Made by a program: the position numbers and the translations under genes. A DNA stretch of 17,489 bases from Gemmatimonadota bacterium (GTDB lineage Bacteria > Gemmatimonadota > Gemmatimonadetes > Gemmatimonadales > GWC2-71-9), in the NCBI GenBank assembly GCA_039586365.1, contig JBDHKN010000095.1, positions 1 to 17,489 on the forward strand. The letters run 5' to 3'. The notes under the pieces were generated by a model that was not told the origin of the DNA, did no database searches, and saw only the letters and a list, made by a program, of their open reading frames with translations. This document shows, one piece after another, positions 1 to 7,999 of the stretch (its first letter is position 1; each line of letters starts with the position of its first letter).

Positions 1-263
1 CCCCAGGTGTAAGAATCCTTGGCTTTCAACGCACTGATGACTGCCTGTAGTGCAGCGTCATTCAGTGGATTCGCCGACGAGGCACCCGCGGCGGCGCGCG
101 TTGCCCCCCGCTGCCTTTCCCACCGGGCCGACTGGGCGGTGCGATCCAACCTCCCGCTGCGGGCCCAGCTTATCCGGCGCCGCGGCCCCGCCGGCACCGG
201 TCCCCACCCTAGGACGATTCCTTTAGCCTGCGGCACTGCCAAGGTCCTGCGTTGCCTGTCCAC
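1..263 (-). CDS. HD-GYP domain phosphodiesterase, N-terminal part only (runs off the left edge)
   Basis: Manual translation shows a GTG at 263 with an AAGGAG RBS at 277-272 and an open frame to the window edge. It ends ...NDAALQAVISALKAKDSYTWG, matching the 'AL.AKD.YT.GHS.RV' start of HD-GYP domains. It is not in the ORF track, and the HD and GYP motifs lie outside the window. Confidence 0.8.
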   Translation of the reverse strand, partial: MDRQRRTLAVPQAKGIVLGWGPVPAGPRRRISWARSGRLDRTAQSARWERQRGATRAAAGASSANPLNDAALQAVISALKAKDSYTW

Positions 264-362
264 GAAACACGCTCCTTGCTGCACACCGGATCTGAGGTTG
301 AAGGCGCTGTCACACAGTGTCGACTGCGCGCCACACTGTCCGCAGTACCCAGGGGGCAAGGA

Positions 363-587
363 TGGGACCGTTTGTACCACCGCTCGAAGTAATTGTCAGA
401 CAACAACTTGTGAGCTTCATACCGCACCGCACCGTGGTACGAATCGTGCGTACTGGTACGAAGTGAACCGGTTGGCGCGATCGAAAACAACTCCGATGGG
501 AGATTCGCATGGACCCAGCTCGAGTCAGCCAAGACGCAGCGACGGAGCTGGTACGGACTGTTACCCGGTGGTACGAAGTGAACCACC
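363..587. promoter_or_regulatory. Cluster of five imperfect TGGTAC-N5-GTACCA palindromes (putative enhancer/operator sites)
   Basis: 363-379 TGGGAC-CGTTT-GTACCA; 435-451 TGGTAC-GAATC-GTGCGT; 454-470 TGGTAC-GAAGT-GAACCG; 549-565 TGGTAC-GGACT-GTTACC; 569-585 TGGTAC-GAAGT-GAACCA. The 16-mer TGGTACGAAGTGAACC occurs exactly at 454 and 569. Confidence 0.65.
435..449 (+). promoter_or_regulatory. Possible sigma54 (-24/-12) promoter
   Basis: TGGTACG-AATC-GTGC fits GG-N10-GC and resembles TGGCACG-N4-TTGC. It overlaps one operator-like repeat, so the match could be coincidental. Confidence 0.35.
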
Positions 588-678
588 CAAAAAGCCCGGC
601 CGCTCCCGCTAAGTTGTTTTCCCATATGGGATTACAATGCAGTAGCTGGCGGGAACGGATTCTGCCCCGGAGGTCAAG

Positions 679-2019
679 GTGAACAGGCTGAGGATTCTTG
701 TGGTGAGACTTTCCGATTCCTTCACAGACGCTTGGGACGAGCTGGCGCGCGACGTCGGCGGCGAGATCTCCTATTGTGACAACGGCGACCTCGCAGCCGA
801 CCCGCTCAGGACGGCGGCAGTGTTGGTCGCCGCCGGTGGGGTCGAGCGTGAAGCCATGGAATGGCTGGAAGGTCACGATTGGCCTGCGGGTGTTCCGCTG
901 TATGTCGTCGGTGCGGACCCCAGTCGCCGCACGGGGACTCAGATAGCCGCGGGCGGCGCAAGTGACTACTTCGCTTTCCCCGAAGATCTCGAGTTGGCGC
1001 GCAACGCGTTGGGATCGGCAGTGTTGCGGCGGACTGAGGCGCTCGGGCGAGTGGAGGCACTCGTACAACAGCCGAGAGCCGAAGCGTTCTCAGCAATCGT
1101 GGGTGAGAGCAGAGCACTGAGGGAGCTACTCGCCCGGGCCGCCCGTGTCCTGCCCCATTCAGATGCTACGCTGTTGATCATTGGTGAGACAGGTACTGGC
1201 AAGGAGTTACTCGCTCAAGCCATTCACCACGGTGGTCCCCGCCGTGGTGCGCCCTTCGTCGCCGTCAATTGCTCAGCTCTACCTGACAATCTCATCGAAT
1301 CTGAACTATTCGGGCATGAGCGCGGGGCCTTCACGGACGCCCACTCGGCCAAGCCGGGTCTCTTCGAAGTGGCTGACGGTGGCACCCTGTTCTTGGATGA
1401 GGTTGGCACCTTGCCTGTGACGCTACAAGCAAAGCTGCTCAGGGTATTGCAGGACAAGCAGGTTCGCCGCGTGGGCGGGACCAGAACTCGCAACGTGGAC
1501 GTGCGGATCGTCGCGGCCACCAATGAGGATCTCAAGCACGCCCTCAAGAGCGGAACGTTCCGTCAGGACCTGTATTTCCGGCTCGGCGTGATCACCCTGG
1601 CATTGCCGCCGCTGCGGGAGCGATCAGATGACGTGATCTTGATAGCCGAAGCCCTGCTCGCAGACCTGGCCGCACAGCATGGCCTTGACGTACCAGAAGT
1701 GACCCCTGAGGCTCGTCGCCTCCTGGTGGGCTACCATTGGCCCGGCAACGTCCGCGAGCTCAAGAACGCCGTTGAGCGGGCACTGCTATTGTCAGCATCC
1801 GGAGCACTGGACCTGCAAGAACTCCTGCCGCCAGCAGATGTCGACACCCCCGGGACCGGGCCGATCCCGTTTCCGGCTCAGCTGGACGAGATCACGGCTG
1901 CTGCAGCTCGGGCCACAATCGATCTATTTGACGGCAACCGCAGCAGGGCTGCACGGCGTCTGGGGATATCCCGCCAGCGCCTCAGGCGGTTGCTCAACGA
2001 AGAACGCATGAGCGCATGA
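679..2019 (+). CDS. Sigma54-dependent Fis-family transcriptional activator (bEBP) with degenerate receiver-like N-terminus
   Basis: Walker [24 protein letters not shown], Walker [23 protein letters not shown] and a C-terminal HTH ([13 protein letters not shown]). GGAGG RBS at 669-673 before GTG. Confidence 0.95.
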
Positions 2020-2042
2020 AGCCATTACAGAGGAGAAGCCTA

Positions 2043-2714
2043 ATGTCTCGGATCGCCCCATTACTCTGCTGCAGCGCGGCAGTCATGCTGCTGTCGTGTA
2101 GCGACAGTACCGGGCCACCGGACTTCCAAGATCAGCCGAGTCTTGGAACCATCGCCGGCCCCGGTGTCAGCGGGTCGCAGCTGCATCCGCTGAGTCACCG
2201 GATGCACGTGGTGACTTCAGACAGCGAGCGCCTGTTCCAGCAAGTGTTCTTGCAGGCCGCCAGCTCAGAACTGCAGGAGGCGTCTGAGATGAGCTTCTGG
2301 GCTGTGCGGGGTGAAGAGCGGACGTTCGAGATCGGCTACCAGAGCGCCGGGGACAGCGCGACCAGTGAATTCCTCCGCTTCCACATCCCGGCTGCAGCAC
2401 TGTTGTTGCGGCCGGACGGAACGGCGTTCGCGGCCGGCGACTCGGTTCTCATTACGGTCACCATCGACCCGTCTGAATTCCACCTGGAGTTTGGGCCGTC
2501 GGGATTGGTGTTCAACGATCAGGCGCCCGCGCAACTGGAACTGTGGTACAGCGCGGCTGAGGGTGACATACCCCAACCCCAGCTGGGCCTGTGGTACCAA
2601 CAGGAAGCAGGAGCCCTGTGGTATCCGATCGTTTCGCAGCACGAACTCGATCGAATGTGGTTCAGGACGGTCCTGTTCCATTTCTCGGGCTACGTGATTT
2701 CCTGGAATCAGTGA
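2043..2714 (+). CDS. Putative lipoprotein with ZU5-like domain and C-terminal HFS motif
   Basis: AGGAG RBS at 2031-2035 favours ATG 2043 (alternative 2016). Signal/lipobox ...VMLLS-C. The F.IP..AL / FGPSGLVF..PA.L.L.Y pattern resembles ZU5. Ends FHFSGYVISWNQ. The domain call is by eye only. Confidence 0.7.
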   Translation: MSRIAPLLCCSAAVMLLSCSDSTGPPDFQDQPSLGTIAGPGVSGSQLHPLSHRMHVVTSDSERLFQQVFLQAASSELQEASEMSFWAVRGEERTFEIGYQSAGDSATSEFLRFHIPAAALLLRPDGTAFAAGDSVLITVTIDPSEFHLEFGPSGLVFNDQAPAQLELWYSAAEGDIPQPQLGLWYQQEAGALWYPIVSQHELDRMWFRTVLFHFSGYVISWNQ

Positions 2715-3703
2715 GACACATAATGCTTAACTCACTGGTAGATCTAAATAGAGTGCGCCAGCTCGCCGAGACCGGTCAGTACGCCGCCCTGGTGGATCGT
2801 CTGAGCGGGCGGTCGCGCGAGGCACTGGAAGACTCACCGACTCTGGCCCTGCTGTACGGAACGGCGAGTGCTCGGCTGGGTCGGCACGAAGAAGGCGAAC
2901 GTTGGACGGAATTGGCGCTCAAGCGATCCCGCGAGCGGATAGATCGGACGATCGAAGCTCGCGCACTGAACGTCCGTGGAGCAATCTGCCTGGCCGGTGG
3001 ACGGATCGACGAGGCGGCCCAGTACTTCACACAAGCGCTTGCGACCTCTGAGCGAGAAGGCGATCACGCGACGGTTGGCCGCTGCTCCAACAACCTCGGC
3101 ATCATCAACAGCTTGCGTGGGCAGTACGCTCGAGCGATCGGCTCTTACACCATGGCGCTCGCTGCTTTTCAGCGGGCTCGTCTCACACACGGCGTGGCCG
3201 AAACCCGTCCTAACCTCGCATTCACATACTCCTACATGGGCGACCACGACCGTGCCCTCGAGGAGGCAGATCACGCAGTGCGAGAGGCAGCCGAGACAGG
3301 AGACGAGACCCTCGCCGCCCAGACGTTGCGCGTCCGGGCCGAGATCCGAGTCCTGCGCGGAGACGTGAAGATCGCCCAGTGCGAGATCCAGCGCGCCCTG
3401 ACGACTCACCGGAAACTGGGCGACGAAGTCGAAGAGGCCCAGGATCTCCGTATCGTTGCCGCAGTGATGACCGCCAATGGTGAGACGGCTGAGGCTGAGC
3501 ACACCCTGCGCGGCGTCATCGAACGCGCCCGGGCGCTGGGGCAACCCCTGCTCGCGGCAGACGCGACGCGCGACCTCGCACACCTGTTGAGGACCGTGGC
3601 GAGGAACATAGAGGCGAAAGAAGCTGCACGCGAAGCTCGCGCGTTGTTCACCAAGCTCGGAGCCGAGGCCGAAATCCGGAAGCTGGACCGATACCTCGGG
3701 TAG
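2711..3703 (+). CDS. Stand-alone tetratricopeptide-repeat protein (MalT/TPR_12-like), cytoplasmic
   Basis: ~40-aa helical repeats (ARALNVRGAI, GRCSNNLGII, AETRPNLAFT). Start is probably GTG 2711 (GTGA overlap with the upstream stop) or ATG 2723 rather than 2591. No signal peptide. Confidence 0.88.
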   Translation: MRHIMLNSLVDLNRVRQLAETGQYAALVDRLSGRSREALEDSPTLALLYGTASARLGRHEEGERWTELALKRSRERIDRTIEARALNVRGAICLAGGRIDEAAQYFTQALATSEREGDHATVGRCSNNLGIINSLRGQYARAIGSYTMALAAFQRARLTHGVAETRPNLAFTYSYMGDHDRALEEADHAVREAAETGDETLAAQTLRVRAEIRVLRGDVKIAQCEIQRALTTHRKLGDEVEEAQDLRIVAAVMTANGETAEAEHTLRGVIERARALGQPLLAADATRDLAHLLRTVARNIEAKEAAREARALFTKLGAEAEIRKLDRYLG

Positions 3704-3985
3704 GCAGGACCTGACTGGGCGGAGGTGACACTACGACTTCCGACTCAGCACGGGTGCCCCCCAAAGCACCCCCCTAACCCAAGCAAGCTGCGACACACCA
3801 AATAGTCCGCAGTCGCGCCGTGGCAACTGACCGACCCTCCTGCTTACCCTCTCCAAACAGCGAAATGTGGCTAAGTTGTATGAACTGGTTAAGCATCGCT
3901 GCTCCGATGCAGGATGCCTTTCTCCAGTCAGTCACCGCTTACAGATGGATTCTCGTCTTCAATACACGAACAGGGAGGCTCGGTC

Positions 3986-6076
3986 ATGAACCTGCCGCTG
4001 CGCGAACGATGCAGACTGCGGCTGAACCGGCTGACTACTGCGCTGAGCGTGCTGCTACTTCTGGCGGCTGTGCAGTCCACAGAGGCGCAGCGAGTGCGAA
4101 TCGATTTCGACGAGTATCACGGCTATGACGCCACGGTCGACTATATCAGGGGAGTCGCCCGGGCTTATCCCAACATCACTGAGCTGCTCGAGATCGGCCG
4201 ATCCAACATGGACCGCCCGATCTATGTGCTCGTGATCTCGAACATGAACAATGGGACCACCATAGACCGGCACGTCGAGCTGCGGAACAAGCGCCGGGAA
4301 GGCGTTGAGAACGTCACCCCGATGAAATCCTATATCGGCAAACCGGGCATGTGGATCGACGGGGGAACGCATGGCAACGAATACACCGGGACGGAGGTGA
4401 GCCTGTACACGATCGACAAACTGACTTCCGGGTACGGCTCCGACGGTGAGATCACCCGCTTGATCGACGACAATGTGTTCTACATCTGCCCCATCGTGAA
4501 CCCTGACGGAGTGTACAACTCAGTCGATCGCGGGATCTCGCAACGGCAGAACTCCATGCTGGTCGACGACGACGAGGATGGCGCAATCAACGAAGACGGA
4601 CCGGACGACCTGAATGGAGACGGCCGTATCACGAGCTTCCGTTATCCGGACCCCGAAGGCCGCTACGTCATCGACGATGTCGATCCGCGCCACATGGTTC
4701 GAGTGGAACAGGACGACGAGGACACGACTGAGCAGAGATACTCAGTGATCCGCGAGGACAGGGACAACGACGGCGACGGGGAGCGGGGAGAGGACTCGGA
4801 GCGGGGCATCGACGTCAACCGGAATTTCCCCGAGGGATGGTTCAGAGACGACAACTCACAGGGTGGCAGGGGATACTACCCGGCTTCATCCCCGGAAGCC
4901 CACGCCATTCTCGAGTTCTTCACCAACCACACCAACATCCTGATGGTGCAGTCATATCACACCTCCGGCGGATTCACCTACCGGCCGCTCGCGCGCTGGC
5001 CCGACGACCGGATCGAGGCCAAAGACCTGGCGGTGTTCGACAGGGTCATGGGCAAGAAGTACCTCGAGTTGAACGGCGCGGAGATCCCCGAGGCGTGGCA
5101 AGACCCAGCGCTGGAAGCCGTGGGGGGTGGACCTCCTGCTAGCAGCACCGGGCGCGGCTACGAGCCTCCCAGGTTGTGGAGACACCCCTACAACGACTCT
5201 GAGGACCGGCCCTATGGATACGGCATCTTCCTGGACTGGGCCTACGCGCAGTTCGGCACCTATTCGATGTCGACCGAGCTGTGGAACTGGCAGCGGGACA
5301 CGAGAGGTGTGCCCGGCTATGAAGGTGAGGAAGACCGTAACGTCTGGTACCGGGCGCTGCTGACGTACCAGGATACAGCCCTGGATGGTGAGATGTTCGT
5401 GCCTTGGAGAGGCTACACCCATCCGGAACTCGGCGAAGGTGAGGTCGGCGGCTGGGTCTCCACCTTCGGCGGCGGCAACGCGCTGCCGGGCGAATCGCTG
5501 CGGCATGTGTGCGAGATCCACTGGCAGTTCGAGCTGTTCAAGGCCGGCCTGCTGCCGAAACTCGAGATCACCGACGCCGCGGCCGAAGTGCTCTATGCGA
5601 CTGACAACTCGAGTGCCGCACGGGCTGTGAGCGACGGAAACACGGTCACGATCCGACCAGGTCGGACTATTGGCCGCTACAAGGTCGTCAAGGTGACCGC
5701 CACTGTTACGAACACCGGAGCCCTCGCGACGCACGTTGCAATAGGTGCGAGTCTGGCGGGCAATCGCCAGGATGCCATCTGGCTGATCGGTGACCGGGAC
5801 AAGATCAAATTCCTGCAGGGCAGCACCTGGCAGAGTCTCGGTGTGATCGACGGATCGATGGAGATACCTGGTTACTCCATCGCGACGAGCGCGACACCGC
5901 GCACGATGCGGCAGCCTGCGAGACAGCAGGGTGACGCGCAACAGGAAGAGGATGAACAGGTCGGCAACCAGCGTGAAGTAACCTGGTTGATCGCAATCGA
6001 AGGCGACACGCCGCTCAAGCTCGTCCTCACGTCGCAAAAAGGCGGCACAACGGTCAGGGAACTCTCAGTCCGCTGA
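3986..6076 (+). CDS. Secreted M14-family zinc metallocarboxypeptidase (paralog A)
   Basis: GGGAGG RBS before ATG 3986. Signal peptide ending TEA-Q. HGNE zinc motif, NPDG, DVNRNF, SYHT and STELW, plus DxDxDG-type Ca-binding loops. Confidence 0.92.
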   Translation: MNLPLRERCRLRLNRLTTALSVLLLLAAVQSTEAQRVRIDFDEYHGYDATVDYIRGVARAYPNITELLEIGRSNMDRPIYVLVISNMNNGTTIDRHVELRNKRREGVENVTPMKSYIGKPGMWIDGGTHGNEYTGTEVSLYTIDKLTSGYGSDGEITRLIDDNVFYICPIVNPDGVYNSVDRGISQRQNSMLVDDDEDGAINEDGPDDLNGDGRITSFRYPDPEGRYVIDDVDPRHMVRVEQDDEDTTEQRYSVIREDRDNDGDGERGEDSERGIDVNRNFPEGWFRDDNSQGGRGYYPASSPEAHAILEFFTNHTNILMVQSYHTSGGFTYRPLARWPDDRIEAKDLAVFDRVMGKKYLELNGAEIPEAWQDPALEAVGGGPPASSTGRGYEPPRLWRHPYNDSEDRPYGYGIFLDWAYAQFGTYSMSTELWNWQRDTRGVPGYEGEEDRNVWYRALLTYQDTALDGEMFVPWRGYTHPELGEGEVGGWVSTFGGGNALPGESLRHVCEIHWQFELFKAGLLPKLEITDAAAEVLYATDNSSAARAVSDGNTVTIRPGRTIGRYKVVKVTATVTNTGALATHVAIGASLAGNRQDAIWLIGDRDKIKFLQGSTWQSLGVIDGSMEIPGYSIATSATPRTMRQPARQQGDAQQEEDEQVGNQREVTWLIAIEGDTPLKLVLTSQKGGTTVRELSVR

Positions 6077-6094
6077 GGCTGACAGGAGCATACA

Positions 6095-7999
6095 ATGCAT
6101 TCGAGAATGAGACTGATGATTCTGCCGGTGTGTACCCTCGTCGTCTGTCTGCTTGCGGCGGGCGCCGCGCCGGCATTTGCACAGATCAAACAGCAGCCGA
6201 GCCCGGGCGGCTACCACGGCGAACTGGACTTTCCCATCAGTTGGAAACGGTACTATTCCTACGCCGAGTGGACTCAAATAATGCACGAGATGCAGGAGCA
6301 GTATTCTCATCTCGCCGACATCGAGAGCATCGGGACGAGCCGCATGGGCCGCGACCAGTACCTCATCACCATTACCGCGGAATCCACTGGTGACCATAGC
6401 GAGAAACCGGCGATGTGGGTGGACGGAGCCATTCACGGCAACGAGGTAAACGGCATCATGTGCTCGCTGTACCTGATGTGGTACTTACTGACGCGGTACG
6501 ACTACGACCCCTACGTGTACGATCTCGTCAACAGTACCACCTTCTATATACTGCCGGGCCTCAACGTCGACGCCAACGAGTCTTGCGTCAGTTTTCCCAA
6601 TACACCGAACAACCCTCGCGAGCCGTACCGCCCCGAGGATAACGATGGCGACGGGTTGTACGACGAAGACCAGACCGAGGACGTCGACGGCGACGGCGAG
6701 CTGTCGACGATGTACATCGAAGACGCGGAAGGGCCCTTTAAACTGTCTGCAGATGGACGGCAGTTTGTTGCGGTGGCGGATTCGACTGAACGAGTGCTGC
6801 GATTCCGCCGCATCGGCGCCGAGGGTTACGACAACGACGGTGACGGCAGGATCAATGAGGACGACATCGGTGGGCCCGACCCCAACAGGAATTTCCCGTA
6901 CGGATGGAGCCTGCAGGCCGGCAACCCCTACCCGATGTCCGAGCCCGAGACGCGCAACGTATATGAGTTTCAACGCACGCATCCCAACATCTTCGCCAGT
7001 TTTCACTTTCACAATACCGGCCGGCTAATCATGTTCCAGGCTCCTCCTGCCGTACAGGCGCAGACGCGGACACAGGCCGGAGGGGGCGGGGGCGGATTCG
7101 GAGGTGGCCGGCAGATGTCCTTTGAGGACAGCCTGGCTTTCCTGCGGGAGAGTAACAAATATGCGCAACTGTTCGAGCGGCAGGTGGCACCGGAATACCA
7201 GCACGACATGGATGTTCAGACCGCGATCGTCACGGCGGGCGCCAGGATACTCAAGAACTACAGACCGACCATCGGCGGCCTGAGCGGCCAGGCACACGCA
7301 GCCACGTACTACATGCTCGGCGCATACAGCTATCTGATCGAGCTGTGGGGTGCACCGACATTTGCGGCCGATCAAAACGACGATGGGCGCATCACCGACG
7401 AGGAATACTTGCTGTGGATCGACACCGAACTGTCCGGCGAGGGTTGGATAGAGCCCCATCGGTTCCAGCATCCGGATCTGGGTGAGATTTGGATCGGCGG
7501 ATCGCGCAAGAAACACACGACTCGAACCCCACCGGCGAGATACATCGAGATGGAAGCCCAGAAGAACTCCGATTTCGTCATGTACTGCGCCAGCCAGTTC
7601 CCGCGGGTCGAGATCGATGAAGTCACTGTGACACCCGAAACAGGAAATCTCTTCTGGGTCGACGTTGCCGTGAAGAATGACAGAATCTACCCGACGGCCT
7701 CGGACCGCGAGAACGAGCTGGGCAGCGCCGTACTGGATCAGCTCACTTTCAGTTCGTCGAACAACATCGAGGTGATAGCGATCCCTGAAGAGGAGACGCG
7801 GATCGACCCGCTGAACAGCAGCTCTGCAGCCACTGCGGCGAGCGACGAGACGACTGAGTTCCGACTCAAGGGCAAAGAGACACGTTCATTCCGCTATCTA
7901 TTCGGAATGTCCGGCGCCAGCGGATGGGTAGAGTTCGAGGTTGTCTCCTATCACGGTGGTACGGCCACCCAGAGGGTTGAGCTACGAACCGGCAACTAG
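6095..7999 (+). CDS. Secreted M14-family zinc metallocarboxypeptidase (paralog B)
   Basis: AGGAG RBS. Signal peptide ending AFA-Q. HGNE, DPNRNFP, FHFHNTG, LIELW, HPDLGEIWIGG and DNDGDG repeats. Confidence 0.92.
   Translation: MHSRMRLMILPVCTLVVCLLAAGAAPAFAQIKQQPSPGGYHGELDFPISWKRYYSYAEWTQIMHEMQEQYSHLADIESIGTSRMGRDQYLITITAESTGDHSEKPAMWVDGAIHGNEVNGIMCSLYLMWYLLTRYDYDPYVYDLVNSTTFYILPGLNVDANESCVSFPNTPNNPREPYRPEDNDGDGLYDEDQTEDVDGDGELSTMYIEDAEGPFKLSADGRQFVAVADSTERVLRFRRIGAEGYDNDGDGRINEDDIGGPDPNRNFPYGWSLQAGNPYPMSEPETRNVYEFQRTHPNIFASFHFHNTGRLIMFQAPPAVQAQTRTQAGGGGGGFGGGRQMSFEDSLAFLRESNKYAQLFERQVAPEYQHDMDVQTAIVTAGARILKNYRPTIGGLSGQAHAATYYMLGAYSYLIELWGAPTFAADQNDDGRITDEEYLLWIDTELSGEGWIEPHRFQHPDLGEIWIGGSRKKHTTRTPPARYIEMEAQKNSDFVMYCASQFPRVEIDEVTVTPETGNLFWVDVAVKNDRIYPTASDRENELGSAVLDQLTFSSSNNIEVIAIPEEETRIDPLNSSSAATAASDETTEFRLKGKETRSFRYLFGMSGASGWVEFEVVSYHGGTATQRVELRTGN

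Follow-up and report, generated by a model that had tools for sequence, protein, structure and literature searches.

The stretch of DNA analysed in this study, referred to below as the window, comprises 17,489 nucleotides (GenBank assembly GCA_039586365.1, contig JBDHKN010000095.1) from a bacterium of the phylum Gemmatimonadota and is the entire contig C24 of a 5.4-Mb genome that is 86% complete. Its left end carries three tandem genes on the forward strand, which encode a σ54-dependent activator (a bacterial enhancer-binding protein; bEBP), a lipoprotein with a predicted self-cleaving ZU5 domain and a stand-alone tetratricopeptide-repeat (TPR) protein. These genes diverge from the truncated start of an HD-GYP gene, and putative operators and promoters lie in between. 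In this study, we compare this module with its homologues and propose, largely from sequence comparison, that the last β-strand of the lipoprotein is cut off and recognised by the TPR protein, and that this protein in turn gates the activator.

The activator (446 amino acids; positions 679–2019) starts at a GTG codon. The lipoprotein open reading frame (ORF) may begin at ATG 2016, in an ATGA overlap with the activator gene, or at ATG 2043 after a 23-bp gap; homologues begin at the latter, which gives a protein of 223 amino acids (2043–2714). The TPR protein may start at GTG 2711, in a GTGA overlap, or at ATG 2723, 8 bp after the lipoprotein gene as in loci L027–L029; homologues favour 2723 and hence 326 amino acids (2723–3703). 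An earlier, sequence-only reading of this DNA had described three tightly packed genes divergent from a fourth and had found no histidine kinase. The ORF coordinates bear out the first point; as to the second, none was seen among the ORFs of the window by inspection, six of which were scanned against Pfam.

Three samples define the counts given below: 301 Gemmatimonadota genomes scored for the lipoprotein and the pseudo-receiver activator; activator loci collected with a receiver alignment and the receiver pattern (one genome per species, the best 80 of 256 matching loci); and 60 regions around the 150 lipoprotein matches listed, mostly the higher-scoring ones. The genomes are related and the locus sets overlap, and the counts are therefore not independent. 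Both the lipoprotein and the activator are present in 86 of the 301 genomes, the lipoprotein only in 12, the activator only in two and neither in 201. Among the 62 activator loci (from the best 80 of 256) with at least 2.5 kb of downstream DNA, 58 hold the lipoprotein, 61 the TPR protein and 57 both. All 60 lipoprotein loci hold the TPR gene, directly downstream in 58 and with the activator in between in two; the activator is found in 46 of them, leaving 14 with a lipoprotein–TPR pair and no activator nearby. The TPR start lies at most 24 bp from the lipoprotein stop in 92 of 113 pairs. Module matches span the organism's own family, other families of its order and other orders. The four-gene module of the sequence-only reading therefore stands as a conserved activator–lipoprotein–TPR core (86 genomes with both scored proteins versus 14 with one), but its HD-GYP member is swappable, being divergent from the activator in 25 of the 59 activator loci whose upstream DNA was long enough; some HD-GYP gene is present in 40. 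Labelled homologues belong to Gemmatimonadota, as do 78 of the best 80 of 256 activator loci; of the other two, one is unlabelled and one comes from a metagenome-assembled Chloroflexota genome. One module, L117, lies on a contig labelled Chloroflexi; its gene order and tails are very similar to those of L116, a Gemmatimonadales locus, and a binning error is probable. The ESM Atlas returned Gemmatimonadota clusters and one labelled Bacillota (three records), with ZU5 only at 0.88, and is uninformative on range.

The N-terminus of the lipoprotein is hydrophobic and is followed by Cys19 (2097–2099), which is invariant in 44 aligned rows; export and lipid anchoring are thus supported by the sequence. 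Neither Pfam nor NCBIfam matches the protein. Its AlphaFold2 model (mean predicted local-distance difference test score, pLDDT, of 84) is a β-sandwich spanning residues ∼80–223, and structure alignment (VIA-align) places it nearest the ankyrin ZU5 domains (Z = 9.6–10.1, root-mean-square deviation 2.4–2.9, 109–116 residues aligned), with 6m3q as the top match (Z = 10.1, deviation 2.6, 116 aligned). UNC5b (Z = 7.4) and GAIN and FIIND domains (Z = 5–7) follow. The top eight Foldseek rows are likewise all ankyrin ZU5, with weak E values of 2 × 10⁻³ to 2 × 10⁻². Alignments to the cleaved chains of NLRP1 (which ends at residue 1212), GPR56, GPR97, GPR110 and latrophilin-3 all end at Phe214 of the model; the ends of the four receptor chains are what we take to be the cut sites of these G-protein-coupled receptors (GPCRs). 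In NLRP1 the F1212A and S1213A substitutions abolish cleavage, according to the accessible part of the source (PMC7483925).

The predicted self-cleavage site, His213-Phe214-Ser215, and the peptide that follows it span 2679–2711; the cut would fall between Phe214 and Ser215, and SGYVISW(NQ), the C-terminal product, is encoded at 2685–2711. The site was counted in 417 distinct homologues, which are 421 alignment rows less four gapped there; most homologues are 160–260 amino acids long. The residue after His-Phe is Ser in 292, Cys in 65, Thr in 59 and Ala in one, i.e. a possible nucleophile in 416 of 417. Four other Ser-rich columns accept Ala 11–161 times and Cys at most six times, so that the column after Phe has the pattern of a catalytic nucleophile. 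His occupies the −2 position in 335 of the 417. Self-cleavage at HF/S is thus strongly supported as a prediction from sequence and model, and the HFS/ZU5-like character that the sequence-only reading had assigned to this lipoprotein holds for both fold and nucleophile. These loci also encode a second ZU5 subfamily, only distantly related (HHalign probability 97.7), whose members share the terminal motif; it has more than 1,600 relatives, and weak Pfam ZU5 matches were obtained for five of 18 members. The short ZU5 subfamily has no relatives in plasmids, in viral contigs or in the host genome (86% complete); in that genome a second match to the lipoprotein profile lies on C12 (E = 6.5 × 10⁻⁶) and is devoid of the tail.

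By fold and motif, modelled and aligned, the lipoprotein is a member of the ZU5/GAIN superfamily with predicted autoproteolysis. It shares with the ZU5, GAIN, FIIND and Nup98 domains (in PIDD1, NLRP1, CARD8 and the adhesion GPCRs) the fold, the position of the scissile bond, the H-x-S/T/C nucleophile and a post-cut strand that bears the signal. It differs from them in that this strand ends the chain: the product would be a free peptide of seven to nine residues and its receptor a separate cytoplasmic protein, in place of a fused seven-transmembrane or CARD module. In bacteria, an HFS site is predicted to self-cleave in the ZU5 autopeptidases of polymorphic toxins (PMC3482391, accessible part) and has been shown to do so in the MAIN domains of bacterial secreted proteins (bioRxiv 10.64898/2026.05.12.724683). 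MAIN domains, as described in the available text of that preprint, carry a C-terminal surface anchor, and a large cargo is shed from their N-terminal side; the module lipoprotein, in contrast, has an N-terminal anchor and no cargo, its chain ends nine residues past the site and the peptide would be the part released. Its architecture also differs from that of the toxin ZU5 domains. The available text ties no signalling to the C-terminal fragment, and the main text holds no match for Gemmatimonad, ZU5, lipoprotein, TPR or quorum.

The tail measures exactly seven residues in 331 of the 417 homologues, and 308 of these 331 tails end in Trp, Tyr or Phe. The consensus heptapeptide is S-x-Y-A-V-S/A-W, and the window protein has SGYVISW followed by NQ. 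Of the nonapeptide SGYVISWNQ proposed earlier, a conserved tail thus remains, but the family unit is the heptapeptide and the NQ extension is clade-specific. In 52 long tails the unit is carried twice; the terminal copy retains Trp in 41, the first copy has Phe, Glu or Ala at that place, and first copies drift at positions 4 and 7. Four loci (L037:8977–9819, L129:8415–9248, L122:3054–3785 and L113:8257–9234) have perfect or near-perfect double SGYAVSY/F ends, in which the first copy is no longer preceded by the His. Loci L177, L179, L162 and L150 each hold five to six ZU5 lipoprotein genes and one to three TPR genes, resembling multi-channel cassettes.

The TPR protein comprises eight helix pairs with a 40-residue period (TPR_12, E = 2.9 × 10⁻²²; model pLDDT 94.7), and no signal stretch was found in its sequence. 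By the 23 distinct TPR–HD-GYP fusions in module loci, this family is assigned to the cytoplasm, with a sensor role. Its nearest solved folds are solenoids that bind peptides, namely LGN/Pins, RapJ–CSF (TMq 0.62), the phi3T Rap and NprR, although similarity among TPR folds is by itself unspecific. Among 73 single-domain homologues, Asn83, Asn123, Asn124 and Asn164 are conserved at 94–100% in the 40-residue register, which supports the Asn-lined groove that had been proposed, and Arg51, Arg80, Arg120, Arg170, Arg205, Arg243, Glu160 and Glu207 at 78–97%. For the analysis of co-variation, 71 adjacent lipoprotein–TPR pairs were used, with an effective number of 52. When the TPR column that co-varies best with each lipoprotein column is taken, it sits at a groove offset for five of the six tail columns and for 11 of the 131 others; with a stricter groove set the figures are four of six and five of 131, stable over three weighting thresholds, and no other six-column block (127 compared) has a groove count as high as that of the tail. 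From the co-variation, tail position 7 is predicted to lie close to TPR residues 43–51, position 5 to residue 87 and position 4 to residues 163 and 200; the unusual Pro163 of the window protein (in place of His163) recurs in the three relatives whose tails also have Val at position 4. Binding of the tail peptide to the Asn/Arg/Glu-lined groove is thus a supported prediction.

The activator matches Sigma54_activat (PF00158, E = 1.7 × 10⁻⁶⁸), an AAA lid and HTH_8, and no NCBIfam equivalog at cut-off. It combines the features of a bEBP: an AAA+ domain with a GAFTGA-type loop, a Fis-type helix–turn–helix (HTH) and −24/−12 promoters with upstream enhancer sites. The loop reads GAFTDA, which is also the most frequent variant among the family members (63 of 122, compared with 19 for GAFTGA). 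The N-terminal domain (∼679–1083) is receiver-like by profile (8svz, E = 4.7 × 10⁻⁶), and the phosphorylation residues of NtrC-type response regulators are missing from it. The phospho-Asp position is Ala52, an Ala in 114 of 124 homologues (then Val in four, Gly in three and Ser in two); the β4 Thr/Ser position is Gly78 (Gly in 120 of 124); the β5 Lys position holds a hydrophobic residue and the acidic pocket is replaced by Leu11-Ser12. The loss of phospho-acceptor residues noted from this one sequence is hence a family-wide trait. Other residues (Ser12, Phe15, Glu56, Arg84, Tyr97 and Asp103) are conserved in 120–124 of the 124, the pattern expected of a binding surface.

The region upstream of the activator (264–678) holds five GGTAC-N5-GTACC-like sites within 364–584, out of 13 in the whole window against 5.5 expected by chance. 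They resolve into a dyad, TGGTNC-N5-GNACCA, arranged in pairs: operator pair 1 (435–470; dyads 19 bp apart; score 31.2) and operator pair 2 (549–585; 20 bp apart; score 29.9), the latter aligned in close relatives. Among 123 upstream regions (seven of 130 were excluded at locus edges), 38 have the dyad at least twice, compared with 2.75 in shuffles; of 59 pairs from 40 regions, 47 are spaced by 19–20 bp, and the dyad is restricted to part of the family. With a matrix built from the sites of other genomes, the two pairs of the window rank first and second genome-wide and the next match outside the window scores 19.2; the regulon therefore looks local. The pairs lie between two putative σ54 −24/−12 promoters. 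One (CGGTCCCATCCTTGC, 356–370, reverse strand) serves the divergent gene, has the form GG-N9-TGC, lies 66 bp from the first operator pair and is aligned in relatives; among the 40 homologous regions having a pair, 32 show such a leftward site at a distance of 66–70 bp from their first one. The other (GGGAACGGATTCTGC, 651–665, forward strand) precedes the three-gene operon, and its GG and TGC columns are kept in 13 of 13 aligned upstream regions. The dyad itself resembles a σ54 site, and individual promoter assignments are therefore provisional. The rightward site is so near the GTG codon that its transcript would be nearly leaderless. Transcription would start within a few bases of GTG 679, past the GGAGG (651–679), so that the mRNA from this promoter may be leaderless or a second promoter may exist. 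AT-rich tracts at 388–400 (between the left promoter and the operators, in a conserved position) and at 610–637 (between pair 2 and the right promoter) are weak candidates for bend sites of the integration host factor (IHF) type, and 264–678 contains no exact IHF consensus. The host genome encodes RpoN. The operator array of the sequence-only reading can now be described as two dyad pairs between divergent σ54 promoters, an arrangement from which autoregulation, with control of the divergent gene by the activator, is implied.

Of the divergent gene (1–263, reverse strand) at most 87 codons lie in the window; its start codon is inferred. The contig ends within the gene, so that it is incomplete and its catalytic motifs are not visible. 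Pfam and NCBIfam give no match for the fragment. Its identity is based on the last ∼20 residues (LQAVISALKAKDSYTW), which align to the start of the HD domain of complete syntenic HD-GYP proteins: the fragment end ...ALKAKDSYTW corresponds to their ...ALDAKDSYTWGHS. These complete homologues retain HD, HHE and RPY motifs, often with GFP or GLP replacing GYP, and the one in L035 matches Pfam HD_5. The HD-GYP assignment made earlier thus rests on the match to syntenic proteins, and the window shows only the start of the gene. In four same-genus relatives the divergent gene encodes a PAS histidine kinase instead, a hybrid kinase where complete. By gene comparison, the divergent gene appears to be a transcriptional target, a common but exchangeable HD-GYP output and not a fixed member of the module; HD-GYP and GGDEF genes recur across the loci, in line with the cyclic-dinucleotide output proposed earlier. 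Cyclic di-GMP (c-di-GMP) turnover so appears to be a recurring yet exchangeable output. In L109 (6218–6910) and 14 other loci, a family of ∼190–230-residue proteins with an HTH-like start and no Pfam match is encoded divergently from the module.

On this evidence we propose a one-component peptide circuit with a self-processing precursor, in which the strand cut from the lipoprotein binds the TPR protein as its ligand and the TPR protein gates the activator; we put the probability of this predicted circuit at roughly 0.6. The lipoprotein would be exported and lipid-anchored, and its ZU5 domain would cut itself at HF/S by an N-to-O/S acyl shift. The last β-strand, a seven-residue peptide, may then be freed spontaneously or upon turnover or unfolding of the anchored part. 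As gene context suggests, it would enter the cytoplasm through an Opp/Dpp-type ATP-binding cassette (ABC) importer, to be bound in the groove of the co-translated TPR protein, the step to which the co-variation lends support. The TPR protein would control the activator through its non-phosphorylatable receiver, again as judged from context. Paired operators lie between two divergent σ54 promoters, and the activator would therefore drive both its own operon, in positive feedback, and the output gene; the promoter anatomy supports this step. The output here would be an HD-GYP phosphodiesterase that lowers c-di-GMP, and in other genomes the same sensor may act through its direct fusion to HD-GYP. 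A wider version, in which peptide communication runs through this double-membraned phylum with ZU5 lipoproteins as pheromone precursors, Opp-type import and co-evolving TPR receptors that feed into σ54 or c-di-GMP control, is offered tentatively as a possible extension.

How a peptide might enter the cytoplasm had been left unexplained by the sequence-only reading. SBP_bac_5 genes occur in 16 of the best 80 (of 256) activator loci and in 13 of the 60 lipoprotein loci, in at least four arrangements, and 25 of 28 distinct module-adjacent proteins of this family form one clade (≥40% identity); the search profile had been built from two members of this clade, though it detects other substrate-binding proteins in the host genome as well. 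The ortholog of this clade in the host genome heads a five-gene operon on C68 (L217:2307–7845) for a binding protein, two permeases and two ATPases. An Opp/Dpp-type ABC system is thus a candidate import route by gene context, but it is not a fixed neighbour of the module. Binding proteins of family 5 also transport nickel and other solutes.

Several observations weigh against the proposed circuit, and we set them out here with the alternatives to which they lend weight. The importer is adjacent to the module neither in the host genome nor in most loci. Whether the peptide passes between cells or reports on the cell's own envelope is about even. Taken by itself, the second form, which is part of the circuit and not opposed to it, is somewhat unlikely: an envelope-stress or mechanical sensor within the same cell, where the peptide is held in the cut domain and freed by force, unfolding, proteolysis or metal loss. 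It would account for the low variation of the tail across genera, in which SGYAVSW was seen 45 times, unlike kin-specific pheromones. It would also suit a DxDxDG loop, presumably calcium-binding-like, that lies between model residues 174 and 176 in 298 of 421 homologues and is deleted in the window protein. Furthermore, the cleavage products of MAIN domains stay stably associated, and those of MAIN and GAIN domains do so until force is applied, as stated in the available text of the preprint (bioRxiv 10.64898/2026.05.12.724683); release of the peptide would accordingly need a trigger. Autoregulatory promoters, arrays of five to six precursor genes with differing tails, tandem tails and tail–receptor co-variation are, however, typical of pheromone systems.

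A more serious departure from the proposed circuit would make the tail a purely structural last strand and the lipoprotein an envelope adhesin, scaffold or turnover substrate within the regulon, while the TPR protein binds another ligand or tunes the activator. We consider this unlikely. The mean entropy of the tail (1.35) equals that of the core strand 134–141 (1.34), so that structure alone may explain part of its conservation, and the His at −2 is absent in 82 of the 417 homologues, or 20% (Gly in 57), and no other conserved His takes its place. In the tandem tails the terminal copy scores above the first in 32 of 52 and below it in 18. The groove offsets, taken from the helix register, were fixed partly after the data had been seen; the strongest single pair, Ser220–Phe149, lies outside the groove and has the appearance of a clade marker, and tree-aware tests of five tail–groove pairs left two to seven independent pairs each, too few for any to reach significance. 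The co-variation check suggested earlier thus came out as a groove bias of the tail columns, with tree-aware tests short of significance. A paralogous pseudo-receiver activator (51% identity) and TPR protein (31%) are encoded together on contig C43 (L001:6526–10685) with neither a ZU5 gene nor an operator pair adjoining; this pair may represent an orphan receptor, or else indicate that the peptide is not essential. What a structural strand leaves unexplained is the fixed seven-residue length with a free aromatic end, the conservation of the terminal copy in tandem tails, the groove-biased co-variation and the coupling of lipoprotein and TPR genes in the 14 loci with no activator nearby. Ahead of the C43 pair lie genes for two lipoproteins of a further, unnamed family (in the Atlas, distantly DUF4382/MbnP-like), and a Ser/Thr kinase gene follows the pair; this lipoprotein family adjoins 16 of the 60 lipoprotein-anchored loci.

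It is also conceivable, and quite improbable in our judgement, that the peptide–TPR interaction is real and that the TPR protein acts on HD-GYP, GGDEF or kinase partners and not on the activator, which would be constitutive or sense a small molecule such as c-di-GMP and simply transcribe the operon. The TPR–HD-GYP fusions suggest such partners; elsewhere there are two TPR genes, or GGDEF genes lie alongside (18 loci), and 13 loci have kinases or receivers next to them. Lipoprotein–TPR pairs with no activator in the examined stretch point the same way, and mutual information between receiver and TPR protein (64 pairs) gave top pairs of clade-marker columns and no usable signal. Against this, the activator and the TPR protein persist together where the lipoprotein is missing (C43 and L046), the TPR gene accompanies 61 of 62 activators and the dead receiver conserves its new surface. 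A chance neighbourhood or assembly artefact has a negligible probability, since only the end of the contig inside the HD-GYP gene speaks for it, and it is refuted by synteny across many genera and several families and by independent sediment contigs that span the activator–lipoprotein junction (X3, 1717–2207; X2, 1913–2233) and the lipoprotein–TPR junction (X1, 2709–2881).

The proposed circuit works like Rap–Phr but is not an RRNPP member. As described in the available part of the source (PMC10075063), RRNPP systems of Firmicutes and mobile elements have a propeptide of 10–100 amino acids, Sec export with exopeptidase maturation and a TPR receptor of 250–500 amino acids encoded by an adjacent gene. 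Common to both are a precursor with an export signal whose gene adjoins that of a cytoplasmic TPR receptor within this size range, a short C-terminal peptide and repeated peptide copies. As in Rap–Phr, the receptor has no DNA-binding domain and would act on a response-regulator-like protein, and RapJ–CSF, the phi3T Rap and NprR are structurally similar to it. Precursor size and host group set the module apart: the precursor is a folded, lipid-anchored domain of 223 residues with its own cut site, a lipoprotein-type signal with Cys19 and predicted autocatalytic maturation, and the host is a diderm phylum and not Firmicutes. In addition, the target is a σ54 activator with a dead receiver, and by sequence the TPR protein is nearer to LGN/Pins and kinesin light chain than to Rap.

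Protein-controlled or atypical-receiver σ54 activators are represented by PspF–PspA, NifA–NifL, FleQ and VpsR, which resemble the present activator in joining AAA+ and HTH domains with no control by phosphorylation; to our knowledge, none has a peptide-binding TPR protein as its described partner. The composition had been called undescribed, and indeed no description of this gene set was found in the literature searched, which mostly excluded subscription journals. The module would thus represent a type of peptide signalling not yet described for bacteria with two membranes. Signalling by imported peptides with TPR receptors has been described for Firmicutes and their phages and would be extended to double-membraned Gemmatimonadota, an abundant and poorly studied phylum of soil and sediment. 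A self-cleaving domain would be a new way to make a signal with no processing protease, and the C-terminal ZU5/GAIN strand would gain a bacterial function, a point that the available text of the MAIN preprint leaves open. This would have implications for how tethered-agonist signalling arose in adhesion GPCRs and NLRP1. In the wider version proposed above, the counterpart of the adhesion-GPCR tethered agonist would be set free. The parts of the module are also small and portable.

Directly downstream of the module, 3914–7999 encode two tandem secreted M14 zinc carboxypeptidases with DxDxDG repeats. Trimming of the peptide by these enzymes was considered and dropped, as relatives carry other genes there (an M6 peptidase and others). 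In public sequencing data, one RNA run yielded two contigs of 151 nt that match the activator gene exactly; this does not prove transcription. The best-matching runs are estuary and marine-sediment metagenomes, and three DNA runs from these two habitats contain 25–36% of the words of the window.

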